NCBI GenBank assembly: GCA_031550325.1
Contig: JAVBOR010000007.1
Location: 27,885-91,884, forward strand
DNA length: 64,000 nt
Direction: 5' to 3'
Source: Oscillospiraceae bacterium
Lineage (GTDB): Bacteria; Bacillota; Clostridia; Oscillospirales; UBA929
Shown one piece after another: positions 10,289-51,566 of the stretch. The translations under genes and the position numbers were made by a program. The notes below the pieces were generated by a model. That model worked only from the letters and a program-made list of their open reading frames with translations, had not been told where the DNA came from and did not search any database. The first letter of the stretch is position 1, and the number at the start of each line of letters is the position of its first letter.

Positions 10289-10327
10289 CGGGCTCTTCCG
10301 GGCTAAACCCTGGAGAGCCCGGCTTTT
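10289..10327 (+). terminator. Candidate terminator downstream of cinA
   Basis: cgggctcttcc, a loop, then ggagagcccg, followed by gcttttcacgtttt. Confidence 0.4.
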
Positions 10328-10437
10328 CACGTTTTGCGCCTGCTCGGCGGGAGAGGGGTTCGGACCTGCCGCATACACCTTTATATATAAGGAGTCAGCA
10401 TGCAGGTAAAAGTAGCCGCCGCGCACCTTTGCGCAAG

Positions 10438-10613: not shown

Positions 10614-10731
10614 TACCTTTATATATAAGGGATATGCGCGCGCATTACTCTGCGCGCGTATATCGCCATTAACATAACACGATATTCTTCCTCAGCCTAG
10701 TTTTGGACGCTAAAATGTCGGCAAAAAAAGC

Positions 10732-10758
10732 TCAAGGAGAATTGAGTTCTGACGATAT
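10732..10758 (+). promoter_or_regulatory. Candidate SigD (sigma-28)-type promoter upstream of fliK
   Basis: TCAA, a 15-nt spacer, then GACGATAT. A second candidate, TATA-N15-CACGATAT, lies at 10659-10685. The B. subtilis consensus is TAAA-N15-GCCGATAT. Confidence 0.3.
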
Positions 10759-10848
10759 ATGTATTGTGACGGCGAGAGAGAACATCCCGCCCCGGCTGCA
10801 CGGCAGGGGGAGGGCCCTAACGACCCCGGTCACAAAGGAGGCAATCGC

Positions 10849-12294: not shown

Positions 12295-12312
12295 ACCCCG
12301 AAAGGAGAGAGT

Positions 12313-35996: not shown

Positions 35997-36074
35997 GCCC
36001 CCACACGAGGCTTACGACAAACTTGACGATGACGAACAAGGATGTTCAGGGTCAAAACAGACAAGGTGGTCGCT

Positions 36075-36683
36075 ATGTTATCAAGAATTGTCATCAAACA
36101 GAGCGCGGGCGCCATCGCCATCGACGTCAGGCACGCAAAGCTGGAGGGCCGGCCCGGGCGCATGGAGATGTCCATGGAGCAGAACGCCGCCGAGGTGCTG
36201 ACCATGGCCAATACGCTCCCGAAGATCCGGATCGATCAATCCGCGGCGTTTGCCAGCGTCGGACTGAAGCAATCAGTCCCTCTGGCCAACGATATCCACG
36301 CCAAGGCGCTGCAAAACGGACTGCAGGCCATTGGCCGCATTGTCCAGGACGGACTGGAGTTCTTGCGCATCGAATCGCAGTCGCAGCCCATTGCCGCTCA
36401 GGCGCAGCGTCTGGGTGTGCAGGATCTGCGCCTGACGGTGCGGGCGCTGCCGTCTGTCGGGCCGGATATCACGCTTGACGAGGGCAGTGTGGACATCGAC
36501 ATTCCCCGCCCCCAGTTGCAGGTCAACTGGAAGTGGGTCGATTCCACCAGCGAGTACACCCCGTATGAGGTCAATATTACGCTGGCGCGGAAACCTTCGA
36601 TCGAAATTTCGGTCGAGCCGGGGATTGAACTGAGCTTTCCGACGAATATGGGAGTGGGCGGCGCCGTCGATGAAGCGATTTAG
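36075..36683 (+). CDS. Hypothetical protein in the YviE position (between flgL and fliW)
   Basis: Start is MLSRIVIKQ after RBS aaggtgg. The position is the same as B. subtilis yviE. The family assignment is from memory of synteny only. Confidence 0.5.
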   Translation: MLSRIVIKQSAGAIAIDVRHAKLEGRPGRMEMSMEQNAAEVLTMANTLPKIRIDQSAAFASVGLKQSVPLANDIHAKALQNGLQAIGRIVQDGLEFLRIESQSQPIAAQAQRLGVQDLRLTVRALPSVGPDITLDEGSVDIDIPRPQLQVNWKWVDSTSEYTPYEVNITLARKPSIEISVEPGIELSFPTNMGVGGAVDEAI

Positions 36684-36770: not shown

Positions 36771-37250
36771 ATGCGCATCAATACGTCTCGATTTGGGGAA
36801 ATTGACATTGCGGACGAAAAGATCATCGCGTTTCACAATGGGATTCCGGGGTTTGAACACTGCAAGCACTTTGCGCTGATCACATCTGAAGAGACAGAGC
36901 CGTTCCATTGGCTTCAGGCGATGGAGGAACCCGATATCGCCATTGCCGTGATCAACCCCTTCAGGCTGTTTCCCGAGTACTCTCCGCAGGTGCCGGAGTC
37001 GGCGCTGTCCGACATCGGCAAGCCGCAGGACGAGGACATCGTCGTGCTCACGGTGGCGGTCATCCCGCCCGAGGTCACGCGGATGACCACAAATCTCGTT
37101 TCGCCCATTTTGATCAACTCGAGGGTCAACGCGGGACGGCAGGTGATTTTGGAGGGCAGCGACTTCCAGATCAGACAGCCGATCTTTGAGGCGGTGCAGA
37201 CACTGCTAAATGGAGGTGCGGACAATGCTGGTGCTGACCAGAAAGCTTAA
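36771..37250 (+). CDS. fliW: Flagellar assembly factor FliW
   Basis: MRINTSRFGEIDIADEKIIAFHNGIPGFEHCKHFALI...PFHWLQAMEEPDIAIAVINPF is the canonical FliW pattern. Confidence 0.9.
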   Translation: MRINTSRFGEIDIADEKIIAFHNGIPGFEHCKHFALITSEETEPFHWLQAMEEPDIAIAVINPFRLFPEYSPQVPESALSDIGKPQDEDIVVLTVAVIPPEVTRMTTNLVSPILINSRVNAGRQVILEGSDFQIRQPIFEAVQTLLNGGADNAGADQKA

Positions 37251-37458
37251 CCAGTCGATCACACTTGGCGAGAACATCCGCATCACCGTATTGTCGGTTG
37301 AGGGTGATCGCGTGAGCCTGGGCATTGACGCGCCGCGGGACGTGCGCATCTTCCGGTCGGAGCTGCTTGAGGGCACAAAAGAGACCAACCAGGAGTCGCT
37401 GTCCTCTGTTTTCCCCGCCAAGGAGCTTGTCAGGCGGAAGGGCGAAAAGCCGCAGTAA
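37225..37458 (+). CDS. csrA: Carbon storage regulator CsrA (flagellin translation repressor)
   Basis: MLVLTRKLNQSITLGENIRITVLSVEGDRVSLGIDAPRDVRIFRSEL. The gene overlaps the 3' end of fliW. Confidence 0.9.
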   Translation: MLVLTRKLNQSITLGENIRITVLSVEGDRVSLGIDAPRDVRIFRSELLEGTKETNQESLSSVFPAKELVRRKGEKPQ

Positions 37459-37533
37459 GGCGGCCGGAGGGCCGGGCTGTCCGGCGGCTCGCCGCCGGCA
37501 TCTATATCTATTTATAAGTGCAAGACAAAAAGC

Positions 37534-37574
37534 GCAAGGATGGAAGGCGAGAAACGCCCCCTCCTTGCTTTTTT
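37534..37574 (+). terminator. Rho-independent terminator downstream of csrA
   Basis: The stem is gcaagga...tccttgc, with an inner ggcg/cgcc pairing, followed by tttttt (37569-37574). Confidence 0.55.
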
Positions 37575-37783
37575 GATATGTTGATTGGGCAGGGCAGCAC
37601 CCCGGGCGCCGACTGCTATTTTTGCCGATAAAGCCGAAAAGGCCAGCGCCGCGCCGATCTCAGGCGCAGTCAGAAACCCCGCGCCGGGCGCAGGGAGGTC
37701 GGCCGGCGCGGCGCGGGGCGCGGAGGAAGAGCGGCGCTTGACCTGCTCGGAGACGCGCCGGTGAAAAAAGATCGAAGAAGGAT

Positions 37784-37810
37784 TAAAGGTTTGTCCTGAA
37801 AGCACGATAT
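37784..37810 (+). promoter_or_regulatory. SigD (sigma-28)-type promoter of the flagellin gene
   Basis: TAAA (37784-37787), a 15-nt spacer, then CACGATAT (37803-37810). The consensus is TAAA-N15-GCCGATAT. The promoter is about 140 nt upstream of the flagellin ATG. Confidence 0.55.
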
Positions 37811-37952
37811 TATTGTTCGGAGGGGAACAGAGCCTGTCAGCCAAAAGCGTTGGCGCCAACGAAGCTGGACGGCGGGCTTTGCAACCTCGATAAAAATCAT
37901 GCAAGGCTCTGGCAAGATGCCGGGGACCTAAAATTCAAGGAGGAAAACCCAA

Positions 37953-39008
37953 ATGCGTATTCAGAACAATATGATGGCCCTTAACACCCACCGTCAGCTC
38001 GCCGTGAACCAGAACAACCAGACCAAAGCCACCGAGAAGCTCAGCTCCGGATTTCGAATCAACCGCGCCGCGGACGACGCCGCCGGCCTCTCGATCAGTG
38101 AGAAAATGAGAGCTCAGATTCGTGGCCTTAACCGTGCATCCGCCAACGCGCAGGACGGCATTTCGATGATCCAGGCCGCTGAAGGCGCGCTCCAGGAGAC
38201 CCACTCGATCCTGCAGCGTACCCGTGAGCTGGCAGTTCAGGGCGCCAATGACGTCAACGCCGACGAAGACCGTACCGCGATCATGGACGAAATTCAGCAG
38301 CTCGGCCGCGAGCTTGACCGTATTTCCACCACGACCAACTTCAACGGCAAGTACATTCTGTCCGGCCAGTACGCCGACCTCGGCACCACTTCTGGCGACG
38401 ACCGTTATTCCGGCAACGTAGTGTATGCCGACGTCAACGACAACTCCGACGTCATCGGCTCGATCAACCTTCAGGTTGGCGCGAACACGCTGTTCGGCGA
38501 TGTCATCTCGGTTAACATGTCGGGCGTCAACGCCACAAACCTGCTCACCGACAACTTCTGGTCCAATGACGGTGCCTACGGCTCCATCGGAACGCTCAAC
38601 AAGGAACCCGGTGAAGTCATGGCCATGGTCGGCGACAGCGATGTTGCGACTTCCGCCGACGGAACTGCCTGGACCATCAACTCCTTCCAGTCCCTGATCA
38701 ACATTATCGACAGCAAGAATCCCGATGGAACTGCCAAAGACGCCGCCTCGGAAGCCAAGACGGGCATCGGCCTTGTCAACGAACTGCGCAGCCAGCTCGG
38801 CGCCGTGCAGAACCGCCTTGAGCACACCATCAGCAACACCGACACCGTGGCCGAGAACATGCAGGGCGCTGAGAGCCGCATACGCGACGCCGACATGGCC
38901 AAGGAAATGATGAACTTCACGAAGAACAACATCCTCAACCAGGCCGCGACCGCGATGCTCGCGCAGGCCAACCAGGCCCCGCAGACCGTGCTGCAGCTGC
39001 TGCAGTAA
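37953..39008 (+). CDS. fliC: Flagellin
   Basis: MRIQNNMMALNTHRQLAVNQNNQTKATEKLSSGFRINRAADDAAGLSISEKMRAQIRGL at the N-terminus. The C-terminus is RIRDADMAKEMMNFTKNNILNQAATAMLAQANQAPQTVLQLLQ. Confidence 0.95.
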   Translation: MRIQNNMMALNTHRQLAVNQNNQTKATEKLSSGFRINRAADDAAGLSISEKMRAQIRGLNRASANAQDGISMIQAAEGALQETHSILQRTRELAVQGANDVNADEDRTAIMDEIQQLGRELDRISTTTNFNGKYILSGQYADLGTTSGDDRYSGNVVYADVNDNSDVIGSINLQVGANTLFGDVISVNMSGVNATNLLTDNFWSNDGAYGSIGTLNKEPGEVMAMVGDSDVATSADGTAWTINSFQSLINIIDSKNPDGTAKDAASEAKTGIGLVNELRSQLGAVQNRLEHTISNTDTVAENMQGAESRIRDADMAKEMMNFTKNNILNQAATAMLAQANQAPQTVLQLLQ

Positions 39009-39193
39009 TCGTAAACTAAGCTAGCCAAGGGCATAGTATTCATATGGCATTGTCAGACGGGCGCTACGCCCGTTTGGCATGTCAGGAGAAAATTCCTCAC
39101 AAAAACCTCACAACTTCCCCCCTCCTATGAGGGCCTATCCTGTCAAGAGGTAGGGAAACCTCTTGCGACATATTGAATGGAGGCAACTCACTC

Positions 39194-41335
39194 ATGAAAA
39201 CCAAGAAATTACTGTCTCTGGTGCTTGCGTTTGTGTTCGTAGCCAGCCTGGCGGCAATTCCCGCGTTTGCCGAAGGCGAGACCGAAGAAGTCGTAGCCTT
39301 TAATCCCGGCATCGTTTTTGAAGAAGCAGTTGACTACACCCTCATCCCGACCGTGGACAGAATCGGCGACACCACCGTCACCACGGCGTTTGACGCCGTG
39401 ACCGCCGCCCTGGCAGAAGGTTCGATTAAGCTCGACCTCGGCGCTGAGAAGCTCTTTGTGCCCGAATCCGTAGCCATCGCCGCGTACAGCGTGGATGGCG
39501 GACAGAAGTGGAAGACGGCTTCCCTGGGCTCCAACACCGGCGCAGACATCAGCAAGCTTCTGAACAAGGAAAACACCATCTGGCTGACCACTTCGTATGA
39601 CAAGAAGGCCAAGGGCCCCACAAAGGGTACCGCCGCTGTTGCCCAGACGGCTGACAAAGAAGCCGTTGCTGCTGTTGAAGGCGCTGTCGTCCTGAAGTTT
39701 GCCAAGATCGCCGCCCGCCCCAAAGCCGAGAAACTGGTTGTCAACTACGCGCTGTTTAAGGACGCTACGGGAGTGACCCCCGGCGAGTGGGCGCTGACCA
39801 AGAAGGACGCCACAACCACCGCCGTGAAGACCGGCCTGCAGGTTGCCCTGTCCGACGACAAGAAAAACCCCAATGTGACCAAGGTTGAAGAAGTGTCCTT
39901 CACCTGGGGCGCATTCCCCGAAGAGGGCGGCCTGAACGTGGAAGCTCTGGCCGAAGGTTCCAAGCCCACCAAGCGCGTGTACCTGGTTCGCCTCCAGCCT
40001 GTTATGGAAGCCGGCAAATACGCGCCCGCGTCCAAGCCCGCTAAAGTAACCGCGTCCAGCGAACAGAAGGCTGTCAAGCTCAAAGCCGACTACAAAAAAG
40101 AGCTGATCAAGGGCAAAGAAAACCTGAACGTGTTCTTTGGCGGAGACATCTCCAAAGTCGATGCTGAAAAGACCTATACCAAGGATGCCCCGCGCGGCAC
40201 GCTGATGGCTCCCATGACCAAAGAGCAGGCCAAAGCGGGCGTCGATATCTCGACGTATATGACCGAAGCTCGCGAGAGTGTTACGCTGTGGATCGGTGCC
40301 ACTGAGAAGAAGCCCGCCACTGCCAAGCAGGTCATCAAACTCGCTGCACGCGCCTATCTGAAAAATGAGGCCCTTTCCCCGGCCAAGGGCAAGCTGAAGG
40401 TCGACAGCAAAAAGTATGAAGTGCTCAACACTGAAAAGAATAAGTGGGGCTCGCTGCCCAAAGTCGAAGCCAGCAAGACGCTTTCCATCCGCCTGAAAGC
40501 CACCGCCAAGGGCGGCAAGGAAGACGACACGACCTATGCAGCAAGCCGCAACGGCGGACTGGTCCTCGGGTTTGGCCCGTTTGACGAGAAGAAGCTTGAC
40601 AAAAAGGGAATCGTCTCCGCCATGGTGAACGCACCCGAATATGCGGGCGTGCTGACCGCGGTTCCGGAAACCGAGAGCGTCTCTGTTGAGTTCGGCATGA
40701 CGACCCAGACCGTCGTCTTTAACGTCACCGGCCTTGTTGAGGATGACACGCTTGTCAGCGAAGCCGGCGCAGGCAAAATCAGCTATGACGTGTCCTTTGG
40801 CACCGCCGACATTGTTTCCGCAACCTCTTCGTACGCCGACAAGAAGATTACGCTGACCCTGACCACTAAGAACGCCGGCAAGACCAGCGTGGACATCGCG
40901 TTTACCGTCGACGCCGCAGTGGAAACTGCCGATCTGTACTTCCCCGAAATGTTCTCCACACTCCCGGCCAATGTCACCGTTACGCCCAAAGCCCTGAAGC
41001 TTCCTGACGTCACCGCCGCCACCATCGCCGCGCTCTCCGCGACTGCTGTGAAGTACACCTTTACGTTTGAAGACTCGCTGAAAGCCCTGCTGACCAGCGG
41101 CGCAGTGAAGATCACCAACAACACGCTGAGCAACGTGAGCGTGAGCTACGACACCGCGACAGAGGGCAAGATCATCGCCTCGGTCGTTGGAAGCGGCAAC
41201 AATGAGACCCCGCAGGAGCTCGTCTTTACCCTGGCGGTTGACGCTGCCAAGACCACGAACTATGTGGTCGCCGAAACCGCCATCACGAAAACCGTGACCA
41301 TCACCAAGGTCGCCGCGCTGAGCGAAGGCGAATAA
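39194..41335 (+). CDS. Secreted protein of unrecognised family, paralog 1 (713 aa)
   Basis: RBS is aatggagg. The signal peptide is MKTKKLLSLVLAFVFVASLAAIPAFA. It shares an ordered motif series with the next two genes: YSVDGGQKWK, RPKAEKLVVNY, PASKPAKVT, KADYKKELIK, ATEKKPATA, KWGSLPK, IRLKATAKGGKE. Confidence 0.85.
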   Translation: MKTKKLLSLVLAFVFVASLAAIPAFAEGETEEVVAFNPGIVFEEAVDYTLIPTVDRIGDTTVTTAFDAVTAALAEGSIKLDLGAEKLFVPESVAIAAYSVDGGQKWKTASLGSNTGADISKLLNKENTIWLTTSYDKKAKGPTKGTAAVAQTADKEAVAAVEGAVVLKFAKIAARPKAEKLVVNYALFKDATGVTPGEWALTKKDATTTAVKTGLQVALSDDKKNPNVTKVEEVSFTWGAFPEEGGLNVEALAEGSKPTKRVYLVRLQPVMEAGKYAPASKPAKVTASSEQKAVKLKADYKKELIKGKENLNVFFGGDISKVDAEKTYTKDAPRGTLMAPMTKEQAKAGVDISTYMTEARESVTLWIGATEKKPATAKQVIKLAARAYLKNEALSPAKGKLKVDSKKYEVLNTEKNKWGSLPKVEASKTLSIRLKATAKGGKEDDTTYAASRNGGLVLGFGPFDEKKLDKKGIVSAMVNAPEYAGVLTAVPETESVSVEFGMTTQTVVFNVTGLVEDDTLVSEAGAGKISYDVSFGTADIVSATSSYADKKITLTLTTKNAGKTSVDIAFTVDAAVETADLYFPEMFSTLPANVTVTPKALKLPDVTAATIAALSATAVKYTFTFEDSLKALLTSGAVKITNNTLSNVSVSYDTATEGKIIASVVGSGNNETPQELVFTLAVDAAKTTNYVVAETAITKTVTITKVAALSEGE

Positions 41336-41547
41336 GGCTTAAACCCCGCATCCAAAGCAAAACATGCGAACAGAGCGGGGAACCCCCGGCACAGCGCCGG
41401 GGATTCCCCGTTCCCCCGGATTGACGCTGTTTTGCGTGTCAGGCAGGCCGAACTGCCTGGTGTGCAAAACATCGCTAATCGGTAAAACGAGGAGCTTAAG
41501 CAGACAATCACCGCGCGGGTTCACGCGGATACAAAGGAGATGCCATT

Positions 41548-44500
41548 ATGAAACGCATCGGAATCCTCTTGCTGGCGCTTTGCTGCGCGGTTTGCGCCAT
41601 GACCATTTCTGCACTGGCCGCGGACGAGCCGGCCACCTTTGACCACAACATCAACTATGCCGACAATCTGTCGGCCAACCGCTACAAGGTTAGTGCCGAC
41701 TCCAGCGACGCATGGATCGACCTGGGAACCGAGCGCCTGTACGCGGCTGACGGCGTCAACATCAGCGGCATCAGCTACGACGGCGGCAACAAGTGGAAGA
41801 CGGTCGTCGTCCCCGCGGAAGGGCTTGACCTGACCAAGGCATTCAACAAGCCCACCTCGATCGTGTTGGCCACGCAGATGAACGGCAAGAAGCCCCGTCT
41901 CACGGCCTCGGCCGACGGTTCGGAGCCCGCGGGCAAGCTCATCAAGTTTCCCTCGATCTCCGGCCGGCCCAAAATAGACAAGTTTATAGTCAACTATCTA
42001 GTCGGCGCGGACGACACCGGCGCGACAAACGGGCGCTGGGTGCTGACGCTGAAAGATTCCAGCAGGCCGCTGACCGGCTATCAGGTCGCGCCCTCGCTTA
42101 ACAAAAAGACGCCCGATACCGTCATGCTCGACACCAGTGGAAAGGTCAGTGACTCCGGCACGGTGGAAGCCAGCTGGGGGAGCTTTTCGCTCAGCGGCAG
42201 CGCCCAGGGCGTCAGTATCATCGGCCTGACCGAAAGCGGCAAACAGCAGAAGCTGAACTACGTTGTGCGTGTGGCGCCGAACGCGCAGACGCGCACACCA
42301 GCCTCCAAAGTGAAAAAGATCACCGTGGCCGGCGTCGGCAAGAAAGTTGTGTTTAAGGCCGATTATAAAAAGGAAATCATCAAGCTCAAAGAAAACGGCA
42401 TGTTCTTTGAGGGGGATCTCGCCGGTCTCGGGCAAAACACGACAAAGCTTTCCCGCCAGTCCAAGGATGAGGCAAAAGCCGGGACTCAGCTGGGGAACAT
42501 GATGGAAAAAACCGCCTGCATGTGGATTGCGGCCACGGTCAAAAAACCGGCCACAGCGGCGCAGGAAGTGACGTTTGCAGCGCGCGGCATGATGAAAGAG
42601 ACCGAACTGAAGGTGGCCTCGGGCAAAACAAGCGTCAGCACCAAAGAGTATGAGATCTACGACCCCGCCAAGAAAAAGTGGGGCTCGCTGCCCAAGCTTA
42701 CGGGCGCATGTGAACTGGGTATCCGCATCAAGGCTACCGCGAAGGGCGGCAAGGAGTCGGATGACACGAAGTTCGCAGCCAGTGAAGAGGGAAAACTGGT
42801 CATTGACTGGGGCGAATACACCAAGGGAAAATCAGGCGTTATCGGCGCGGCGATCATTGCGCCGGAGTATACGGGCGTTTTCCGGTATAGTCCGGACAAG
42901 ACAGTGTACATCCAGGACGAGTCGGATACGACCTTTACGGTGACCTTTGAGGCCAAGGGCCTTTACTCGGGCGACACTCTGGTGCTGAAGGCCACCGGCG
43001 ACACCCTCACGGACGTGGCTGCGGGCGAGGTTTGGATCAGGCCCAAAGTCAACTACAAGAACACGGGCGCCGCGGAGGACTCCATTACCTACACGGCGAG
43101 CCTTTCCGACGGAAAACTGAAGCTGGAGGTCATGCCCGAGCTGGCCTGCGAGGCCACCATTGAGCTTGAGTACGCTCTGGGCACGCACAGCCCGGTCTAT
43201 GACGCTGACAACAGCGGGGGCCGCGCGGCGGTGATCAAGGTCAACAGCGTCGGTGAAACCGTGAAGCTGAACAGCATGAAACCCGCGTATCTGGACGACG
43301 GCGTGCGCATCAGCATGACGACCGCGGCCACCAGCGGCACCACGCCGCGCCGCGCCAAGGTTGTCAAGGGCACAGCGGTCATCTCGTCCGACGGCCAACT
43401 GCAGATGGCTTCCAAGCAGGATTTGAGCGGGTATACCAGCTTTACCTACGCTGCCTCCGACAAGGACGAAGCGCTGCCCGAAGAATCTGTGTTTACAAGC
43501 GACGCTGTCGAGGTCAGCCATGAGGGATATCTATTTGTCAAAGCCGAGGGGCAGGGCAAGAGCACCATCTACTTTGCCTATGAACTCAAGGACGCCTCGG
43601 GCGCGCGCATGAAAAGCGCTGCCTTCTCGGGCGACCAGGTGATCGTTACGCTTGACGAGCCGCTGTCCGACAGCGCCGAAACAGGCGGAGCGTCCATTGT
43701 CCTGGAGGGCTGGGGCGTAGGCCAGGCCACGCGCAGCTATGTGACAAACATCGCCCTCAGCGCGGACAAGAAGCAGATGACCATGACGCTGGACGACGGG
43801 TTTGCGATGCAGAGCGGCGCAAAATATGTGCTGACCTACAGCGGCGCGACGCAGTCGGACGTTTTGTCCGACCGGCACAGCAACGCGATGCAGCCCGGCA
43901 GCGTGCCGGTCGGCAGCATCAGCGGCGTGGACCGCGTCCGGTTTGAAAACGGACTGATGAACACCCCTGTCGACGTCGTGGCCCCTGAGCCGGTCTCCTC
44001 GCTGTCGGCGCTGACTACAGACAACATTTACAGCATTTCGCTGGCCGGAAGCAACACGGGCATGATGATTGTTGACGGCGCAACCAGTGTGCAGTATGCG
44101 CGCAGCAACACACTGATGGCCACCGAGATGACCATGAACAGCTTCACCAACGGAACCGTTGTCTCCGGCCTGAGCGTGGGCGATTATCTGTATGTCAAGG
44201 CCGACGGGAAATATTATGTGTTCCAGGTGGCCAAAAACTCGCTGGCCAGCACGACCGACACCACGCGCCCGCTGGCCTCCAGCGCCGCGCTTATCAAGTC
44301 CGAAGCCACCTACACCGCCACGCTGACCGCCAACGAGGCGCTGCTCAAGTTCGGCCTTGGGCCGAGACCCGAGCAGTTCAGAATTGACACGGGCACGCTC
44401 AACAATATTGCAGTGAGCAAAGTGGCCGTTTCGGGCACAAAGATTACGCTGACCCTCACGGGAAGCGATCTCAGCGGCATCGCGAACGGCGATGATGTCA

Positions 44501-44619
44501 AAATCACTTATAACACCGGCAGAAACGGCATTTCGGACGCGAACGGAAACCGCGTCCTGGCTTTCAACACGGTCAAGCTGACGCTGTCCGGCTTTTCCAC
44601 CGCTTCGCCGTTGCCTTAA
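41548..44619 (+). CDS. Secreted protein of unrecognised family, paralog 2 (1023 aa)
   Basis: RBS is aaaggaga. The signal peptide is MKRIGILLLALCCAVCAMTISALA. Motifs are SYDGGNKWK, RPKIDKFIVNY, PASKVKKIT, KADYKKEIIK, ATVKKPATA, KKWGSLPK, IRIKATAKGGKE. The long beta-rich C-terminal half has D-x-x-GN endings (ISDANGNRV). Confidence 0.85.
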   Translation: MKRIGILLLALCCAVCAMTISALAADEPATFDHNINYADNLSANRYKVSADSSDAWIDLGTERLYAADGVNISGISYDGGNKWKTVVVPAEGLDLTKAFNKPTSIVLATQMNGKKPRLTASADGSEPAGKLIKFPSISGRPKIDKFIVNYLVGADDTGATNGRWVLTLKDSSRPLTGYQVAPSLNKKTPDTVMLDTSGKVSDSGTVEASWGSFSLSGSAQGVSIIGLTESGKQQKLNYVVRVAPNAQTRTPASKVKKITVAGVGKKVVFKADYKKEIIKLKENGMFFEGDLAGLGQNTTKLSRQSKDEAKAGTQLGNMMEKTACMWIAATVKKPATAAQEVTFAARGMMKETELKVASGKTSVSTKEYEIYDPAKKKWGSLPKLTGACELGIRIKATAKGGKESDDTKFAASEEGKLVIDWGEYTKGKSGVIGAAIIAPEYTGVFRYSPDKTVYIQDESDTTFTVTFEAKGLYSGDTLVLKATGDTLTDVAAGEVWIRPKVNYKNTGAAEDSITYTASLSDGKLKLEVMPELACEATIELEYALGTHSPVYDADNSGGRAAVIKVNSVGETVKLNSMKPAYLDDGVRISMTTAATSGTTPRRAKVVKGTAVISSDGQLQMASKQDLSGYTSFTYAASDKDEALPEESVFTSDAVEVSHEGYLFVKAEGQGKSTIYFAYELKDASGARMKSAAFSGDQVIVTLDEPLSDSAETGGASIVLEGWGVGQATRSYVTNIALSADKKQMTMTLDDGFAMQSGAKYVLTYSGATQSDVLSDRHSNAMQPGSVPVGSISGVDRVRFENGLMNTPVDVVAPEPVSSLSALTTDNIYSISLAGSNTGMMIVDGATSVQYARSNTLMATEMTMNSFTNGTVVSGLSVGDYLYVKADGKYYVFQVAKNSLASTTDTTRPLASSAALIKSEATYTATLTANEALLKFGLGPRPEQFRIDTGTLNNIAVSKVAVSGTKITLTLTGSDLSGIANGDDVKITYNTGRNGISDANGNRVLAFNTVKLTLSGFSTASPLP

Positions 44620-44759
44620 TGCTGTCTATCCAGGGGCCGTCTCAGAGTCGGCTCCTGGATAGCCTATATGCCCCGCGGGCCGGCAAGGCCCTTGTTTAGA
44701 GTTTCCCCGGCGCCCCGATGCCTGGACCCTATACAGATCAATTGCCTGGAGGTGGAGAC

Positions 44760-47546
44760 ATGAAACGTGCACTGTCGCTGATTTTGTCCCTCGCGCTTTG
44801 CGCCGGTATGATGGCCGGGCTGGGACAGCCGCGGGCTGCCGACGGTCGGGAAAGCGCGCCGGATGTGTACATTCAGGACAACCGGCTGTATCTCCAGGGG
44901 GAGACGACGACCTTTGAAAACATGCTGCGCAACTTTGACGTGCGCTATGTCCCGGCCAAGGACGCGCACACGTTCAGCCTGGCCACGCTCAACACGGACA
45001 GCAGCTACGCCGAAAACGCGTATAAGCTGTATCTCGACCCGCTGAATATCCAGTTCGGCTCTTATATTGAGCTGGTCAGCGTGTCGATGGTTCCCGGAGA
45101 TGTGCTGTACATCGCCTATATGGACTATGACGCCGTTGAGCCCGGGCTGTACGCGCAGATTACGCTCTCAGAGCAGATGCTGGCGATGACCACGACGCAG
45201 AACCCCGCCCAACTGCCGAAGCTGGCCGTTACGGCCTCGACGCTGACCATCACGCCCGGCAACCGGTACACGCAGTATGAATATGCCGTGATCCCCGCAG
45301 TCAGGCCGGCCGACTTCACCCCTGCGTGGATTTTGGCGGGCTCGGCGGCTCAGCAGAACGCGTCGGCGATCAAGGTCAGTCTTCAGCCGCGCGCCGGGGC
45401 GTATACCCTCCGCGTGCGCGTTCAGGGGGACGACCGAGCGGGATTCTATTACGCCTCGATCACCGGAATTACCACTGCGACGCCGATTGTCTCGCTCGAA
45501 CTTGAGGCGCTCGGTCCGCTTGTCGGCGGGAAAAACGGCGAAACATACTATTTCAGCAGTGACGGCGGGTCGTCCTACAAGACGGTCTTCGTTGCGCCCA
45601 ACGAGGAATTTGTCATTGACCTGAGCAAGGTCTTCGGAAAAAAAGAAGTGCAGCTCATTTTGAAAAAAGCCAGCGGGGACAAGGACCCAAAGGATATCAC
45701 GGGAGCGCTTCTCCAGCGCTCTGTAAACGCGCGCGCCGACTTCCCCAAGGAGGCCAAACCGCAGGCGTATGTCAGCGCGAAATACACTGAAAACTTTACG
45801 CTCTCGGGGCTGAGCGGTGAAAAACTGGAGGCCCGTTTGCCGCAGACAGCGCAGTATATCAGCTTTCTGCCGAGCGTGGGACTGCCGCTGCTGTCGGCAG
45901 CCGAGCAGGCGATGAAGAAAAAGGCTATGAAAATTGAGTTCCGCGTGGCCGCCAATACGTCGACGATGACGCCGGCTTCTGCCCCGAAAAAGATCACGCA
46001 GCCCAAGCAGACCAAGGCGCCGACCGTCAAGGTTGACTACAAAAAGGAGATCATCAAGCTCAAGGGGGGCGTGTCGATTGCCTATGCGGACGCGCCGACG
46101 GCCGATCCTTCCACGCTGAAGTTCTCTCAGGTGCAGGGCGACGAAATTAGCGTTTCGGACGCCATCACCACGGGCAAGGTTATGTACTTTTACCTCAACG
46201 CGACCGAAAAAAAGTCGCGTTCTGCTATCCAGCGCGTGAAGTTTGCCCCGCGCCACATCAGACCCGACAACCAGGAGGGTCTGGTTGTGGAAAAGGGCAA
46301 GCTCAAACTGACCAAGGGCTTCGAGGTGTACGCCGCGGAAAAGGGCAAGTGGGGCTCATTCCCCAAGGGCGAAAAAGTGGTCAGCTTGCGCCGCAAGGCG
46401 GATGCCAAGTATAACAAAAAGACCGGCGCGTCGACGGGCAACGCCGCCAGCGTTTCGGTGACGGCGAAGGTCGCCTACGACAAAGACGGCAAAACGGTTC
46501 TCAGCGCCGTGTCCCCCGACAAGCTTTCGCTGAGTACGACGGGTATTTCGTACCGAAACGTGCGCAACAGCCATGTGGACGTCTGGCCCAATGACAACGC
46601 TGAGATTTACGTCAAGGGGCGAACGCTGTACGCCATCTCTATCACCTCGCCCTATGACAACATCGGCGACAGCCGCACATGCGACTTTTCTCTGTCTATT
46701 GCAGCGCCGTACTTAGACGGAGAGAGACTGGCCGAGACGGTCAAATACTGCCTAAACGGTGAAACGGTGTCCGAGGATCAATACACATGTGTGTTTCGGA
46801 GTGTCTCGGTCGGTGATGAGGTGACCTTCGTGCTCACGCCAAAGGACCCCGACAACTACAGAGAGACCACCTACAAGTTTGTGGTCGGCCTTCCGTTTGA
46901 GGACACGCCGTACAGCGTGACGTGGAATGTTTCGGGGACGCGTCGAAGTGAGGTCACCGTCAGGCTGCCGCAAAACCTGTACGCGGGGGAGACGGCGCGT
47001 CTGCAGGTCAAGCTCATCAAGGTCGTTAACGGCGTCGACACCACCGTCGTCGACCGGCAGGAGACGCGCGGCTATGACCCGACCGGCGCCGCCAACAACA
47101 ACTTTACCATTGACTTTACCTCTGAGATCACGCGCTCCGGCGTCGGACGATACCTCGTCAGGGTGCAGCGGCTGGGTACGGCCGGGCTTTCCCAGAACAG
47201 CGGCGTGGTGAGCTCGTCAAACCTGCTGGTCTATGAAAGCGATCTCCAGCTGACCACCGTGACGCTGAGCGAGGCAGCCGCCGTGCGTCAGGACACGGTT
47301 TTGTCTGTGGACAAGGCAACCGACGGCCTGGGCAACGATTTACTCAGCACAGCCACCTTCCAGTGGGTGACCTCCGATACGGATCCGAGCGGAGCGGGGA
47401 CGTCCATAGACGGTCAGACCGCCCGCGCGTTCACGGTGCCCGCCGGACTGGAAGGAAAGTTTATCGGGGTGCGCGTCACAAACAAAAATGTGTCGATTAT
47501 CCGCTGGTATACGACCGTCGTGACCCCCGCGCCCGGCTCTCCCTGA
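44760..47546 (+). CDS. Secreted protein of unrecognised family, paralog 3 (928 aa)
   Basis: RBS is ggaggtgg. The signal peptide is MKRALSLILSLALCAGMMAGLG. Motifs are SSDGGSSYK, PASAPKKIT, KVDYKKEIIK, ATEKKSRSA, GKWGSFPK. An extra N-terminal region of about 250 aa precedes the shared core. Confidence 0.85.
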   Translation: MKRALSLILSLALCAGMMAGLGQPRAADGRESAPDVYIQDNRLYLQGETTTFENMLRNFDVRYVPAKDAHTFSLATLNTDSSYAENAYKLYLDPLNIQFGSYIELVSVSMVPGDVLYIAYMDYDAVEPGLYAQITLSEQMLAMTTTQNPAQLPKLAVTASTLTITPGNRYTQYEYAVIPAVRPADFTPAWILAGSAAQQNASAIKVSLQPRAGAYTLRVRVQGDDRAGFYYASITGITTATPIVSLELEALGPLVGGKNGETYYFSSDGGSSYKTVFVAPNEEFVIDLSKVFGKKEVQLILKKASGDKDPKDITGALLQRSVNARADFPKEAKPQAYVSAKYTENFTLSGLSGEKLEARLPQTAQYISFLPSVGLPLLSAAEQAMKKKAMKIEFRVAANTSTMTPASAPKKITQPKQTKAPTVKVDYKKEIIKLKGGVSIAYADAPTADPSTLKFSQVQGDEISVSDAITTGKVMYFYLNATEKKSRSAIQRVKFAPRHIRPDNQEGLVVEKGKLKLTKGFEVYAAEKGKWGSFPKGEKVVSLRRKADAKYNKKTGASTGNAASVSVTAKVAYDKDGKTVLSAVSPDKLSLSTTGISYRNVRNSHVDVWPNDNAEIYVKGRTLYAISITSPYDNIGDSRTCDFSLSIAAPYLDGERLAETVKYCLNGETVSEDQYTCVFRSVSVGDEVTFVLTPKDPDNYRETTYKFVVGLPFEDTPYSVTWNVSGTRRSEVTVRLPQNLYAGETARLQVKLIKVVNGVDTTVVDRQETRGYDPTGAANNNFTIDFTSEITRSGVGRYLVRVQRLGTAGLSQNSGVVSSSNLLVYESDLQLTTVTLSEAAAVRQDTVLSVDKATDGLGNDLLSTATFQWVTSDTDPSGAGTSIDGQTARAFTVPAGLEGKFIGVRVTNKNVSIIRWYTTVVTPAPGSP

Positions 47547-47703
47547 CGTGGGGAGGGCAAACAGCAATATATTGATGTACCAGTTAAACCTTGCGCCAAT
47601 CTGCGGGGAAAATGCGTCGCCCGCTGGGCGGGCAGAGCGTTTTGAGGAGCAAACTGCGCAAGGTTTAATCGTGGGACCAATAGTAAGCCACAAGTAAGCC
47701 ACA

Positions 47704-47790
47704 AGGCGTTGCGGGACTCAGTTCCGCAACGCCTTTCTCTGCGCGTCTTTGCGAAGACGCGCGTCTTACCTCGATTTGTTAGTGAACCAA
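47704..47790 (+). repeat. Partial copy of the intergenic repeat (hairpin module plus gcgcgtctttgcgaagacgcgc palindrome)
   Basis: aggcgttgcgg gactcagtt ccgcaacgcct is followed by ttctctgcgcgtctttgcgaagacgcgcg. The same hairpin arms recur at 56208-56238. Confidence 0.65.
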
Positions 47791-47805
47791 AGGTTTCTTA
47801 AAAGC

Positions 47806-49182
47806 CTATGTCTCCTGCGTGGGGAGCTTTCGGATCAGATACTTGGTCTTGGAGGAGGCCGTCATCTCCAGCGCGTCGGCCAGCTCCCAGGTCACGCTGA
47901 CCTGTTTGCCCAGCCGGTCTCTGGCGGCCTGCGCCGCGCGTTCGGCCGACTGGGGATCAAAGTTTGCATCGGGGATGATGCGGATGAGCAGCTTGTCGTA
48001 GTCGAGCTGGACGAGCTGACTGCGTATGGCACCGCGCAGCTCGGCAGCCACGAAACCGAGACGGCTGATTTTGCTGCCGTCCACCAGCAGAAAGTAGTCG
48101 TCCACGCGGCCGGTCAGGTCGGTTAAATAGCGAGATTTCCAGCCGCAGGGGCAGGGCTCGGCGCCGAGCGCGCCCAGGTCGCCCGTGACATAGCGGATGT
48201 AAGGAGCCTTGCGTGAGTTTAAATCGGTCAGCACGATATTGCCCACCTGCGAGTCGGGCAGGCAGCGCCCGTCGTCATCCAGTATTTCAGCGTATATATT
48301 GTCCTCAAACAAATGATAGCGCCGGTGGGCGCACATGACCGACAGGCCGCACAGCTCGCTCAGCCCGTATGTCTGATAGACCTTACAGCCCCAGAACTGC
48401 TCCAGGAAATCCTGCTCGGAGGGCGAAACGCCCTCACTGTCCGTGAGCAGCACCCGCAGGGGAGGCGGTCGGATGCCCAGCTCCTTGAGACATTGCGCCA
48501 GATGCAGCCAGGCCACGGGATAGCCGGTTGCGTAAACCACGCCATAGCGTTCCATTGCCCGTGCGTACAGCGGCGCCGTTTGGGCGTTGATGTGCAGAGA
48601 GGAGCACTGCAGCTGATGAAACACATCGGTATACAGCCAGAACGGCGGTTTTTTGCGCTCGCGTGGGACAACCTGAACGCCCGACAGGCGCGCTGCGCGC
48701 GCGTTCTTCGGAATGCCGAGCCCCATCAGGAACGCCTCCATATACGCCTTGGACATGCGCAGACTCTCATGGGAGACGTAATAGGAGACCGGCGTGCCGG
48801 TTGACCCGCTGGTCCGACCGGAAAAAAGCTCAAGCGATCCGGCCTCCGCCGAGCGCATGCGCTCCCGCCCGGCCTGCAGGTCGGATTTTTGGAGCAACGG
48901 CAACGCGCGCAGGCCGGACAGGTCGTCCAGCATCACGTCATAGCAGTCGTTTTGATAAAAAGGGACATGTTTGTGCGCGTACGCCACGAGATCCTGAAGG
49001 CGAGCGAGCGTTGTTTGCTCGCCGACGCCGCAGGCAAGGGGGTCGCGCGCCGCCAGTTCGGACAATAGAGCGCCATAGTCGCCGTACTTCCGAAACGCGT
49101 TGCGGCGGAGCCCCTCCAGATCGGCAAAGAGCCGCTTCAAAAAAAACGGCGCGGCCATATACACGGTATGCGCCAGAGACAT
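47806..49182 (-). CDS. CapK/PaaK-like adenylate-forming enzyme (phenylacetate-CoA ligase / F390 synthetase family)
   Basis: Start is MSLAHTVYMAAPFF after RBS ggaggg. Adenylation motifs are SGRTSGSTGTPV, QTYGLSELCG and YIRYVTGDLG. Confidence 0.8.
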   Translation of the reverse strand: MSLAHTVYMAAPFFLKRLFADLEGLRRNAFRKYGDYGALLSELAARDPLACGVGEQTTLARLQDLVAYAHKHVPFYQNDCYDVMLDDLSGLRALPLLQKSDLQAGRERMRSAEAGSLELFSGRTSGSTGTPVSYYVSHESLRMSKAYMEAFLMGLGIPKNARAARLSGVQVVPRERKKPPFWLYTDVFHQLQCSSLHINAQTAPLYARAMERYGVVYATGYPVAWLHLAQCLKELGIRPPPLRVLLTDSEGVSPSEQDFLEQFWGCKVYQTYGLSELCGLSVMCAHRRYHLFEDNIYAEILDDDGRCLPDSQVGNIVLTDLNSRKAPYIRYVTGDLGALGAEPCPCGWKSRYLTDLTGRVDDYFLLVDGSKISRLGFVAAELRGAIRSQLVQLDYDKLLIRIIPDANFDPQSAERAAQAARDRLGKQVSVTWELADALEMTASSKTKYLIRKLPTQET

Positions 49183-49231
49183 GGCAAAGCCCTCCAAAAT
49201 TATGGCTGTCGATATACCTTCTTTAACCTCC

Positions 49232-49260
49232 ATTATAGCAATATCGGCAAAAGATATCAA
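49232..49260 (-). promoter_or_regulatory. Sigma-70-type promoter for the CapK-like gene
   Basis: Minus strand reads TTGATA, a 17-nt spacer, then TATAAT. Confidence 0.55.
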
Positions 49261-49277
49261 GCCGCGCGGGTTTTGGG

Positions 49278-49306
49278 TTGAGCTGCCGGACACACTATGG
49301 TATGCT
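49278..49306 (+). promoter_or_regulatory. Candidate sigma-70-type promoter for the GNAT gene
   Basis: TTGAGC, a 17-nt spacer ending in TGG, then TATGCT. Confidence 0.4.
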
Positions 49307-49325
49307 TATTTGTGGAGGGCGAAAT

Positions 49326-49913
49326 ATGTTGAGACTAAAGAAAACCGAAGACGCAAAGGCACTGTACGCGCACATGCGCAGGGACTTTCCGGCGGGCGAG
49401 TTGCCGCCGCTGCCCGCGGTGCGCAAGAACGTCGCGCGCGGCGTTTATGAGGCGCTGTGGATTGTCGAGGACGAGACGCTGGTTGGGTATGCCGTGCTCA
49501 CCGCTCCGCCGGGGCTTGGGTACGCGCTGCTCCATTTTTTCGCGGTGCTGCCCGCGTTCCGGGGCGGCGGGTTTGGCAGCCGGGCGCTGGAATGCATTTT
49601 GGAGCGCCTGAACGGGCGGGTGCTTGTACTTGAGGTGGAGGCTCCGGACGCCGCCAAAAACGAAAAGCAGCGTATCCTCCGCGAGCGGCGTGTGAAGTTT
49701 TATGAGCGCGCCGGACTGAGGCTTATTCCGACTCAGAGAGCGAGGATCTTTGGCGTGGACATGCTGATCATGATGAACGGAGAAACGCACAGCGTGCGCG
49801 CCACGATGCACGCGCTGTACCTGCCGACATTTCGGTCGGAGCGCTGGCTGCGGTTTATCGACGTGCGCGACAGCGAGCCAGGGGCTTTGAGGGCGGCTGA
49901 GCGGCCGCTTTAG
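49326..49913 (+). CDS. GNAT-family N-acetyltransferase
   Basis: Start is MLRLKKTED after RBS ggaggg. The acetyl-CoA binding motif A region is FAVLPAFRGGGFGSRALECIL. Confidence 0.75.
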   Translation: MLRLKKTEDAKALYAHMRRDFPAGELPPLPAVRKNVARGVYEALWIVEDETLVGYAVLTAPPGLGYALLHFFAVLPAFRGGGFGSRALECILERLNGRVLVLEVEAPDAAKNEKQRILRERRVKFYERAGLRLIPTQRARIFGVDMLIMMNGETHSVRATMHALYLPTFRSERWLRFIDVRDSEPGALRAAERPL

Positions 49914-49996: not shown

Positions 49997-51502
49997 ATGA
50001 GACGCAGAGTAACAGCATTGGGTTTGGCCCTGGCCATAGTATTGGCAGTTTTGCCAATGGGAGCGCTGGCCGCCTACAGTCTTCCGTCCAGCTTTGAAGC
50101 ACCGCAGAGTGTGGCGGTTTCGTTTAAGGGCAACGCATTTACCTTTGCGCACACGGCTTCGGCGGGCGTGCGATTGGCTGTGGACGCGCGGGAAGCCGGA
50201 GAGTTTTCTCCCGGCGCGCTGATGTATGTCGGGGTGCAGTGGGACTATCAGCTCGACGGCAACGGCTGGCATCATACGTCTGAATGGGACAACGGCGAGT
50301 GCCCCACGACGGCATTGGCCGACTATACGGCTGAGGGCGGATACGTCGACACGTTTGACGCGTTCCCCTATGAAATGCCCGACTTGTTTTCGGCTCAGAG
50401 CATTCCGGCGGGTTATTTTGACAGCCACACCCTGTCATTCCGCCTGCGCTACATTGTGATGTACGCCGAAAATATGGAGGACTCGGCCACGCTTTCTCCC
50501 TGGGCGGCGGTGCTGACCTATCCCACGGACGCAAACGGGGAGGGCGGGAACGAGTTCAGCCCGTCGTCAATGATCCAGCACGCGCCTGAGCTCAAAACCG
50601 TTACGCTCAACGCGTCCGGCACGCTTTTCGAGGGTACGCTCGCTGCGCCCAACAGCCAAATTACGAGCCTTAACACCGCTACGGCGCAAAACGCCAAAGG
50701 CGGCGTGAAGACAAACGTCTGGATCAAGGTGGGCAACAACCCCTGGACCGACGCCGGAAACTTTTCAGCGCTCAGCGGCGCCGTCAGCTTTGGCGCGCCG
50801 GACGGGATGGTCCCGAGTGATCCTGTTTTTCAGGTCAAGGCCCGATACGTGTTTGATCAGGCAGGCAATCCCGAGGGCGGGCAAACCGGTCTGATCTACA
50901 GCCCGTTTTCAAACGTCTTGACGCGCGGCGTGTCCACCTGGGCGGCGGGCTGGCTTGAGAAAGCTGAAACCGCCGAATTGATTCCCGCCATCATCAAGAA
51001 CACCAACATGCAAAAGCAGATCACGCGCGAGGAGTTCTGCGAGATGGCCGTCGTGCTGTATGAAAAGGTGACTGGCAAGCAGGCGACGCCCATCAGCCCC
51101 AACCCGTTTACCGACACCAGCAACGTGAACATCCTCAAGGCGTCCGCGCTGAGCATCACCGCGGGAACGTCTGAAACCACGTTCTCCCCCAAGACGCTCA
51201 TCAACCGCGAGCAGTGCGCCGTAATGCTCTACAACACGCTGCAGGCCATTGCGCCGGCAGGCTCATTTAATACTGCGGGCGCCAAGGATTTCCCCGACCA
51301 AAGCAAAATATCCGACTGGGCGGTTGTGGCTGCCAAATATATGTCCAAACTCAAGATTATCGCGGGGGACAGCGCGGGCAACTTCATGCCCAAGGCGTCC
51401 ACGCCCGCCGAAATAGCCGCCAACTATGGCATGGCCTCGCGCGAAGCGGCAGTCATCATGGTCACCAAGTGTTTTGAAATGAAGGAAAGCATTGGCAAGT
51501 GA
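49997..51502 (+). CDS. Secreted surface protein with C-terminal S-layer-homology (SLH) domains
   Basis: The signal peptide is MRRRVTALGLALAIVLAVLPMGALA. SLH-type repeats are FTDTSNVNILKASALSITAGTSETTFSPKTLINREQCAVMLYNTL and FPDQSKISDWAVVAAKYMSKLKIIAGDSAGNFMPK. The N-terminal 300 aa are unrecognised. Confidence 0.8.
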   Translation: MRRRVTALGLALAIVLAVLPMGALAAYSLPSSFEAPQSVAVSFKGNAFTFAHTASAGVRLAVDAREAGEFSPGALMYVGVQWDYQLDGNGWHHTSEWDNGECPTTALADYTAEGGYVDTFDAFPYEMPDLFSAQSIPAGYFDSHTLSFRLRYIVMYAENMEDSATLSPWAAVLTYPTDANGEGGNEFSPSSMIQHAPELKTVTLNASGTLFEGTLAAPNSQITSLNTATAQNAKGGVKTNVWIKVGNNPWTDAGNFSALSGAVSFGAPDGMVPSDPVFQVKARYVFDQAGNPEGGQTGLIYSPFSNVLTRGVSTWAAGWLEKAETAELIPAIIKNTNMQKQITREEFCEMAVVLYEKVTGKQATPISPNPFTDTSNVNILKASALSITAGTSETTFSPKTLINREQCAVMLYNTLQAIAPAGSFNTAGAKDFPDQSKISDWAVVAAKYMSKLKIIAGDSAGNFMPKASTPAEIAANYGMASREAAVIMVTKCFEMKESIGK

Positions 51503-51566
51503 CGTTATTTGAGCGCGACCATTTTTCATGCGTGTTTCGGTGGATACTTTTGGGGAAGGAGAAATA

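Follow-up and report, generated by a model that had tools for sequence, protein, structure and literature searches.

A 64,000-nt stretch of the genome of an Oscillospiraceae bacterium (contig JAVBOR010000007.1, positions 27,885 to 91,884 of the forward strand; hereafter the window) carries three consecutive genes, here called W1, W2 and W3, downstream of the flagellin gene fliC. Judging from sequence comparison, the core that the three large proteins share defines an unnamed and unannotated surface-protein family of Oscillospiraceae and Lachnospiraceae. In the reading that we favour, and to which we give roughly even credence, W1 to W3 are Sec-exported members of this family that a basic module would retain on the cell wall, with their acidic part displayed.

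An exhaustive hidden Markov model search with a core profile (A1, an alignment of 13 sequences and 375 positions with W1, W2 and W3 in its seed) finds, among clusters drawn at 50% identity, at least 727 representatives with E≤1e-3, of which 378 reach E≤1e-30; a word-indexed protein search finds 12 relatives only. The full-length profile matches of W1 (E 3.5e-143), W2 (E 8e-124) and W3 (E 3.7e-88) are those of seed members; W3-type orthologues from outside the seed reach E values of about 1e-47 to 1e-50. The original prediction had described the family as unrecognised and had proposed a profile search of its core. The description holds, as the core shared by W1 to W3 has no Pfam or NCBIfam match, no PDB sequence scores below E 0.1 against the core profile, W1, W2 or a W3 profile, and members are 'hypothetical protein' throughout where public sources name them. 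In the literature we found no description of the family, nor of Sec-exported proteins in flagellar loci of Clostridia. The genome matches are all metagenome-assembled genomes (MAGs) whose titles give Oscillospiraceae or Lachnospiraceae with three exceptions, a Clostridia, an Eubacteriales and a Fusobacteriales contig (the Fusobacteriales one of only 3 kb), and the record titles of family MAGs point to rumen and gut habitats.

The most telling feature of the core, which the original prediction overlooked, is that it is a strongly basic terminal module on acidic proteins. The module was compared with the remainder of the chain in 154 family proteins, its position was scored in 150, and 219 windows of 375 amino acids (aa) from the same proteins served as controls. 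The median isoelectric point (pI) is 9.4 for the module versus 4.5 for the remainder, with values above 8 in 148 of 154 modules and below 6 in 142 of 143 remainders (module/remainder pI 9.6/4.2 in W1, 9.5/4.8 in W2 and 9.7/4.8 in W3). A net positive charge is carried by 97.4% of the modules (median +3.4 charges per 100 aa) versus 3.2% of the control windows (median -4.0). Its distance from the N-terminus is at most 130 aa in 61 members, its distance from the C-terminus at most 30 aa in 93, and the module is terminal in 135 of the 150; it is N-terminal in W1 and W2 and begins 240 aa from the start in W3. Of the 22 alignment columns that are invariant, 11 hold Lys or Arg, among them core positions K222, K231, K233, K297, K298, R311, K342, R358, K360 and K364. 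They cluster in sub-domains three and four of the four, and it is these Lys/Arg-rich sub-domains that are the portion conserved in W3. Compared at the sequence level, the acidic domains of the family proteins are fast-evolving and the basic module conserved. A signal-peptide-like N-terminus is present in about 121 of the 150 members.

Set against the known wall-anchor repertoire (PMC5817068, Table 1), the family stands apart: in Pfam searches of 100 members SLH, CWB2, LysM, SH3b, ChW, choline-binding repeats and LPXTG all score 0/100. W1, W2 and W3 have no SLH match at E≤1 and no CWB2, LPXTG, choline-binding, LysM, SH3b, WxL or ChW match, confirming the earlier remark that they lack LPXTG, SLH, CWB2 and choline-binding anchors, and a screen combining LPXTG with hydrophobicity flagged one of the 154 family proteins and none of the three. 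As a positive control, the same scan recognises SLH (E 2.6e-10) in a protein encoded at 49997-51502 of the window. The partner domains found by Pfam in the 100 members are diverse, comprising Listeria-Bacteroides repeats (Flg_new), GLUG, Big_2, papain-like Peptidase_C1, lectins, BspA-type leucine-rich repeats (LRR_5), cohesin, GH17, transglutaminase-like, BACON, pectate-lyase-like and hyaluronate-lyase N-terminal domains, and in two members the SbsC C-terminal domain. Because the module is conserved, terminal and basic, and sits on acidic, unrelated secreted proteins without a known anchor, we infer that it is a new non-covalent cell-wall-binding, or surface-retention, unit; its basic, terminal character points to a wall-binding role that would resolve the puzzle of the missing anchor. 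In the mechanism we envisage, the signal peptide, which is recognised here as a sequence feature, would carry the protein across the membrane, the Lys/Arg-rich module would bind an anionic wall polymer non-covalently, be it teichoic acid, secondary wall polysaccharide or peptidoglycan, and the acidic part would project outward as a fibrillar adhesin or S-layer-like coat, or in other members as an enzyme or lectin.

The nearest parallels are the anchors built of three SLH (PF00395) or three CWB2 (PF04122) repeats and the basic regions with which SbsC and Lactobacillus S-layer proteins bind secondary cell-wall polysaccharide or lipoteichoic acid. As in these systems, a multi-repeat module at the N- or C-terminus is joined to many unrelated passengers, enzymes included, and several paralogues occur per genome (PMC5817068); a basic binding region is likewise combined with an acidic exposed part, and the conserved basic residues are likely ligand contacts. 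Unlike them, the module is much larger (about 375 aa) and without sequence similarity to any of these anchors, its wall binding is a prediction, and in place of the three-fold α-helical or α/β pseudo-trimers of SLH and CWB2 it is predicted to form four FN3/immunoglobulin (Ig)-like β-sandwiches in a row.

This architecture comes from modelling. The module (about 400 aa in its W1 form) comprises four sub-domains, and AlphaFold2 run on A1 gives an all-β structure of about 26 strands in four blocks (predicted local distance difference test, pLDDT, 86.7; predicted template modelling score 0.73). Foldseek searches of PDB and BFVD with the core return tandem FN3/Ig arrays only (fibronectin, titin, LILRB and phage FN3 proteins), so that the modelling proposed with the original prediction yields a confident all-β core with a tandem FN3/Ig likeness. 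The scores are weak (E≥8.9e-3 against PDB, three BFVD matches at E≤1e-3, and no match of the Pfam fn3 model), as is expected for flexible multi-domain chains. The full-length W3 model, built from four input sequences, is of moderate quality (pLDDT 64) and nearly all-β, and it matches long titin-type Ig/FN3 rods with E down to 6e-12. W1 to W3 would thus be elongated strings of FN3/Ig-like β-sandwiches with no enzyme fold. They resemble tandem FN3/Big_2/SWM_repeat fibrils in their predicted strung all-β sandwiches, their Foldseek matches, an FN3-like motif (Y-x-V-R-x-A...PAS) and one SWM_repeat in W2, and differ from fn3 and Big spacer repeats in that the module is not matched by the Pfam models for fn3 or Big and the four sub-domains form one unit of fixed order that is consistently basic. 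A similar FN3-like strand motif closes each sub-domain (Y-x-V-R-x-A-P...PAS..K-I-x-V; I-W-x-A-A-T-x-K-K-P-A-S; I-R-L-K-A-T-A-K-G-G...A-A-S). Origin of the four from a repeat was considered and is not demonstrated, the best hhalign probability of one sub-domain against another being 25-29%. The S-x-D-G-G-x-x-W motif, which had been likened to the Asp-box of sialidases, occurs as one copy in the first sub-domain, compared with the 4-6 repeats of BNR/Asp-box sialidase propellers; a β-propeller is rejected, since the single motif falls within a modelled β-sandwich chain and the PDB BNR match reaches only E 9.7.

The genes themselves (Table 1) are three same-strand paralogous open reading frames (ORFs) at the places and of the lengths first proposed, in agreement with ORF analysis, orthologue alignments, which back the shorter starts of W1 and W3, and public gene calls P0001, P0015 and P0044, whose products have exactly the lengths of W1, W2 and W3 (713, 1023 and 928 aa). 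Their N-termini, MKTKKLLSLVLAFVFVASLAAIPAFA, MKRIGILLLALCCAVCAMTISALA and MKRALSLILSLALCAGMMAGLGQPRA, read off the sequence, follow a basic-hydrophobic-AxA pattern that fits the Sec-type signal peptides proposed for each protein, and all three are probably Sec-exported. With classical Sec-type N-termini throughout, they are not taken for substrates of flagellar type III export. W1 contains no Cys, 10.8% Lys and 41.5% Thr+Ser+Ala+Val. The single SWM_repeat of W2 is the only match above the curated Pfam cut-off among the three proteins; the D-x-x-GN ending of W2, once compared with Big_5, falls within it (aa 904-990). SWM_repeat is a generic Ig-like unit, also reported in tail fibres of extracellular contractile injection systems and in a chitin polysaccharide utilisation locus, and its 'flagellar system-associated' label was for this reason rejected as flagellar evidence.

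By pairwise BLASTP, W1 and W2 share 36% identity over 520 aa (E 2e-80), and W3 aligns significantly with them over only about 170-190 aa (E 3e-17 and 6e-20). The family profile nevertheless covers nearly the whole module in W3-type proteins left out of it (positions 19-369, E 5e-50, in family gene g3 of the relative L001). The string of seven motifs said to run through all three proteins is reduced to five in W3, where RPK..VNY and IRxKATAKGGKE have degenerated. The codon strings quoted in the original prediction lie at 40088, 42361 and 46035, and across the paralogue pairs about half of identical residues use identical codons (79/154, 49/105 and 55/110). The triplication is old, because synonymous sites are scrambled, blastn barely detects the paralogy and the window has no long DNA repeats, and it has been maintained, because orthologous W1/W2/W3 triplets occur also in L001 and L151, with W2- and W3-type genes in L024 and other loci. 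The scrambled codons and missing repeats also led us to reject recent duplication or gene conversion. The L001 orthologues are 43% identical to W1, 45% to W2 over 1038 aa and 40% to W3 over 907 aa; besides L001 g2, W2 has the orthologues P0029, P0030 and P0054. The comparisons thus bear out the original view of W1, W2 and W3 as anciently diverged, maintained paralogues.

W1 is preceded by a late flagellar block, all on the forward strand, of flgN, flgK, flgL, a DUF6470 gene, fliW, csrA and fliC, and tblastn finds no fliD or fliS in the 64-kb window; Pfam and tblastn agree here with the earlier account of an adjoining flagellin gene and missing fliD and fliS. The position is not random, as had been supposed: ten Oscillospiraceae sources besides the window have one to three family genes directly after fliC and/or directly before fliD-fliS(-fliT), and in one Oscillospiraceae clade family genes are kept between fliC and fliD. 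All six W3-type orthologues of a first set adjoin fliD, with W2, rsmI or a clpC region as upstream neighbour. FliD is 38-61% identical among the loci, the W3-type proteins 31-55%, and the W proteins at 31-55% compare with 57-89% for FliC. The family reaches, however, far beyond the flagellar context to which it had been tied: a neighbourhood survey like the one suggested with that proposal gives, beside the ten sources, 16 other family loci, all Lachnospiraceae ones among them, with no flagellar gene in the fetched flank. In Lachnospiraceae the module is fused to proteases, lectins, leucine-rich repeats and cohesin domains at non-flagellar loci, and several non-flagellar loci adjoin Wzy_C or sugar-nucleotide genes and further paralogues.

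In Lachnospiraceae MAGs, L006 (also L011; 1288-20155) and L003 (7204-13054) hold tandem arrays of two to five large secreted proteins, at least three of them in the L006 array with a C-terminal basic module, beside Wzy_C/leucine-rich-repeat, transglutaminase-like and sugar-nucleotide genes (GHMP kinase, NTP-transferase, SIS), a setting reminiscent of surface-glycoprotein loci. In GLO_MAG_00153, two contigs together encode no fewer than three flagellins, and behind each flagellin gene stand family genes belonging to a group particular to this lineage. A third contig has a W2-type gene ahead of fliD, and L020 6027-8936 is among the family loci of this MAG.

Aligning the fliC leaders of three genomes exposed a σ28 (SigD)-type promoter, refined to TAAAG-N13-16-CGATA[AT], of which 0.26 hits are expected by chance per shuffled window; the Bacillus-type SigD pattern TAAA-N13-17-CCGATAW has no match in the window, where the fliC promoter reads CACGATAT. 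In the loci examined, the refined motif precedes each fliC and, apart from that of L153, each fliD. Before W1, W2, W3 and their orthologues it was not found, L021 g3 (9506-12679; motif at 9418) being the one exception. In the window, fliC, W1, W2 and W3 are each followed by a stable hairpin, and the core of the fliC stem-loop, CAAACGGGC...GCCCGTTTGG, is conserved in four genomes (the window, L001, L007 and L024). Flagellar co-regulation, which the original prediction had considered, therefore fails the promoter test, and W1 to W3 are best described, on these sequence signals, as apparently transcriptionally delimited neighbours of late flagellar genes, not as demonstrated σ28-regulon members, though read-through of the conserved fliC hairpin into W1 is possible. 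We do not uphold a W3-fliD operon as a firm claim, given a separate fliD promoter in every examined gap except that of L153 and a strong terminator between g3 and the fliD promoter in L001; in L027, L028 and L029 about 40 nt separate rsmI from the start of the W3-type gene behind it.

Between fliC and W1 lies a short spacer element, a 7-bp direct repeat of 11-bp period that occurs once in the window and is identical or nearly so in L001 (9894-9910), L007 (about 479-495), L024 (about 3743-3759) and L151 (about 336-352). It always stands between fliC and the first family gene, after the fliC hairpin and 98-195 nt before that gene. Rfam has no match to it, and nothing credible on 37000-48000. A metagenome scan with the invariant 16-mer of the element returned 120 stretches, none with a flagellin or family gene, which we set aside as chance matches. 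Its repeat architecture is, we presume, like that of OmpR/PhoB-type response-regulator boxes, an analogy that may point to a regulated promoter of its own for the first family gene, with transcription perhaps starting just downstream of CCTCACAAAAACCTCACA. Alternatively, the two CCUC tracts of the element might serve as anti-Shine-Dalgarno sequences. In the fliC leader itself (37784-37952), whose 5' untranslated region is about 140 nt long, two conserved blocks, AAGGCTCnGGCAAGATGCCGGG and TTCAAGGAGGAAAAC, surround the Shine-Dalgarno sequence and are compatible with CsrA sites of the FliW-CsrA-flagellin circuit; fliW and csrA are found directly upstream (36771-37458).

The placement of family genes beside fliC and fliD raises the question of a role at the flagellum, especially for the W3 and W2 types that adjoin fliD. 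The proteins could serve as a filament coat or sheath, as a collar where the filament crosses the wall or S-layer, or as a filament-borne adhesin, the basic module attaching to acidic flagellin or to the wall that surrounds the rod. In favour of this, fliC is immediately followed by family genes in the window, L001, L007, L020/L021, L024 and L152, and family genes directly precede fliD-fliS(-fliT) in L001, L024, L025, L027, L028, L029, L151, L152 and L153; the six W3-type orthologues keep their place beside fliD despite the divergence of FliD and the varying upstream neighbour; FliC is acidic (pI 4.6) and the module basic; and one gene, L021 g3, has a σ28-type motif. General knowledge also offers a precedent in spirochaete FlaA, a Sec-exported flagellar sheath protein that acts in the diderm periplasm. 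W1 to W3 share with FlaA a Sec-type signal peptide and a flagellar gene context, but they have no sequence or Pfam match to it at E≤1 and are large multi-domain proteins of presumably monoderm Clostridia. The W3- or W2-type gene also occupies, co-directionally and immediately upstream of fliD-fliS-fliT, the slot that flaG holds in Bacillus subtilis; FlaG, however, is a small protein without a Sec signal peptide, W1 to W3 have no FlaG Pfam match at E≤1, and a σ28 promoter specific to fliD lies between it and the family gene. The near absence of σ28 motifs before family genes, unlike fliC and fliD, speaks against the idea, as do the fliD promoter inside the gap and the L001 terminator before it, the rsmI-adjacent genes, the 16 loci without a flagellar gene, the broken fliD link in the window and the fact that Pfam and Foldseek found no resemblance, in sequence or in fold, to any flagellar protein, FlaA, FlaG and FliD included. 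We therefore regard an accessory of this kind as doubtful, and any structural or functional role of W1 to W3 at the flagellum as lying between doubtful and very unlikely; at the lower end we place the specific proposal that the fliC/fliD-linked subfamily is a wall-anchored, Sec-exported Gram-positive flagellar accessory (collar, bushing or filament coat) built on a new wall-binding module used by hundreds of Clostridia proteins.

The remaining readings concern the surface rather than the flagellum. The module could bind an external carbohydrate or polyanion, such as an acidic plant or host glycan or extracellular DNA, on proteins that are released or loosely associated, the fliC/fliD location being an insertion-tolerant hypervariable surface-antigen region inherited in one clade. 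GH17, pectate-lyase-like, hyaluronate-lyase N-terminal, lectin and BACON partners are typical of glycan-directed proteins, the habitats in the MAG titles are rumen and gut, and the variable number of one to three family genes in the fliC-fliD interval, with the lineage-specific expansion of GLO_MAG_00153, is in keeping with such a region. We nevertheless think it rather unlikely, as terminal position and exclusion of known wall anchors in 100 members fit an anchor better than a carbohydrate-binding module (CBM), CBM-bearing surface enzymes of Clostridia usually also carry an anchor, and Pfam and PDB show no similarity to CBM families. Still less probable in our view is an S-layer proper, in which W1 self-assembles, with W2 and W3 perhaps as alternative or minor subunits, the basic module is the wall-binding domain and the genes arrayed beside fliC encode a set of major surface antigens. 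W1 has the composition expected of an S-layer protein, down to the acidic bulk and basic terminal binding region; two family members carry the SbsC C-terminal S-layer domain; the tandem arrays beside Wzy_C/sugar-nucleotide genes in L003 and L006 resemble S-layer glycosylation loci; and the W proteins evolve much faster than the neighbouring FliC. Many members, however, are enzymes or lectin or leucine-rich-repeat adhesins rather than lattice formers, no strong σ70-like promoter or long leader lies upstream of W1, and the SLH protein of the organism could equally belong to an SLH-based S-layer.

Wall retention, which we prefer, has its own difficulties. The conserved fliC-fliD placement in ten other sources is not explained by a generic surface-protein role, and the module is internal in 15 of the 150 members. 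Any polyanion would bind to a basic surface, be it acidic flagellin, DNA or an acidic glycan of diet or host; many secreted proteins are anchorless, so that 0/100 is only suggestive; the SLH protein shows that the organism encodes another anchoring system; and the genome matches are all MAGs, from whose sequences wall binding is predicted. If the module is a wall anchor, it would explain the retention of hundreds of large surface proteins, among them proteases, lectins, leucine-rich-repeat and cohesin proteins, would improve surface-proteome annotation in the abundant and poorly studied gut and rumen Oscillospiraceae and Lachnospiraceae, and would provide a new display tag. Should the anchor and flagellar readings both fail, the family still merits a domain entry, being nameless at no fewer than 727 clusters. 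To our knowledge Sec-exported extracellular flagellar accessory proteins have so far been known mainly from spirochaetes, and the fliC-fliD placement offers a concrete way to ask whether Gram-positive flagella have them.

Table 1. Features of the window from fliC to the end of the W3 region, and family loci near flagellar genes in other sources
Feature	Position	Strand	Details
σ28/SigD-type promoter of fliC	37784-37810	+	TAAAG-N14-GCACGATAT; conserved in fliC leaders of L001 and L024
fliC, flagellin gene	37953-39008	+	351 aa, pI 4.6; Flagellin_N E 3.8e-46, Flagellin_C E 5.6e-27
Stem-loop after fliC stop	39045-39084	+	minimum free energy (MFE) -27.5 kcal/mol, z -5.6; terminator/attenuator-like, weak U tract
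Spacer element	39095-39112	+	CCTCACA-AAAA-CCTCACA
W1	39194-41335	+	713 aa; ORF opens at TTG 39173
W1 layout			signal peptide aa 1-26; acidic linker 27-76 (net -10); basic module 77-480; acidic β-rich tail 481-713 (pI 4.4)
W1 basic module	39422-40633	+	four predicted β-sandwich sub-domains, each pI 9.1-9.7
GC-rich stem-loop after W1	41376-41410	+	MFE -35.9 kcal/mol, z -4.8
W2	41548-44619	+	1023 aa
W2 layout			basic module aa 54-438, then 585-aa acidic tail
W2 basic module	41707-42861	+	pI 9.5; profile positions 2-374, E 8e-124
SWM_repeat in W2 tail	44257-44517	+	aa 904-990, PF13753, 28.9 bits versus cut-off 27
Two stem-loops after W2	44626-44691	+	second terminator-like (GGGCC...GGCCC then TTGTTT); MFE -39.7 kcal/mol, z -2.8
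W3	44760-47546	+	928 aa; ORF opens at ATG 44718
W3 layout			W3-specific N-terminal region aa 27-240; diverged basic module 241-585; acidic tail 586-928
W3 basic module	45480-46514	+	pI 9.7; strong similarity to W1/W2 left only in second half (sub-domains D3-D4)
Stem-loop between convergent W3 and AMP-ligase genes	47705-47733		MFE -27.2 kcal/mol, z -5.2, then UUUCUCU; possibly a bidirectional terminator
L001 (Oscillospiraceae MAG)			fliC, W1/W2/W3 orthologues, fliD-fliS
L151			spacer motif, W1-like, W2-type, W3-type, fliD-fliS-fliT
L024			flgL, DUF6470, fliW, csrA, fliC, three family genes, fliD
L152			fliC, one W2-type gene, fliD-fliS-fliT
L007			fliC, two family copies, contig end
GLO_MAG_00153 (L020, L021, L153)			on two contigs family genes follow fliC; on a third they precede fliD
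L025, L027, L028, L029			single W3-type gene directly before fliD-fliS(-fliT); no fliC nearby

Beyond W3 lie a convergent AMP-binding ligase gene (47806-49293, reverse strand), a GNAT acetyltransferase gene (49278-49913) and the SLH protein gene (49997-51502). Homologues of the SLH protein are encoded near the fliD block in L025 (15874-17922, 28% identity) and beside a family gene in L154 (110-1528, 37%). Because the slot of fliD-fliS-fliT in the relatives is held here by the ligase, GNAT and SLH genes, with homologues of the last near fliD or a family gene elsewhere, the missing fliD-fliS-fliT suggests a local rearrangement or loss in this genome.

Several smaller observations concern the surroundings. 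Between flgL and fliW, the DUF6470 gene (36042-36683) recurs at the corresponding position in L020 and L024, with 31-36% identity; it seems to belong to the late flagellar block as a conserved but uncharacterised gene. A lysine 2,3-aminomutase-like radical SAM gene (LAM_C plus Radical_SAM; 51528-52808) lies within 2 kb of the GNAT gene, with the SLH gene between, and by their domains the two could form a β-lysine acetylation pair; a GGDEF diguanylate cyclase gene (53100-54281) follows. AT skew is raised (0.17-0.21) at 38-44 kb of the window and GC skew is negative at 38-42 kb, across fliC, W1 and W2, with G+C unchanged over 38000-44000 (0.58-0.60); the skew probably reflects Lys-, Thr- and Ala-rich coding rather than foreign origin.

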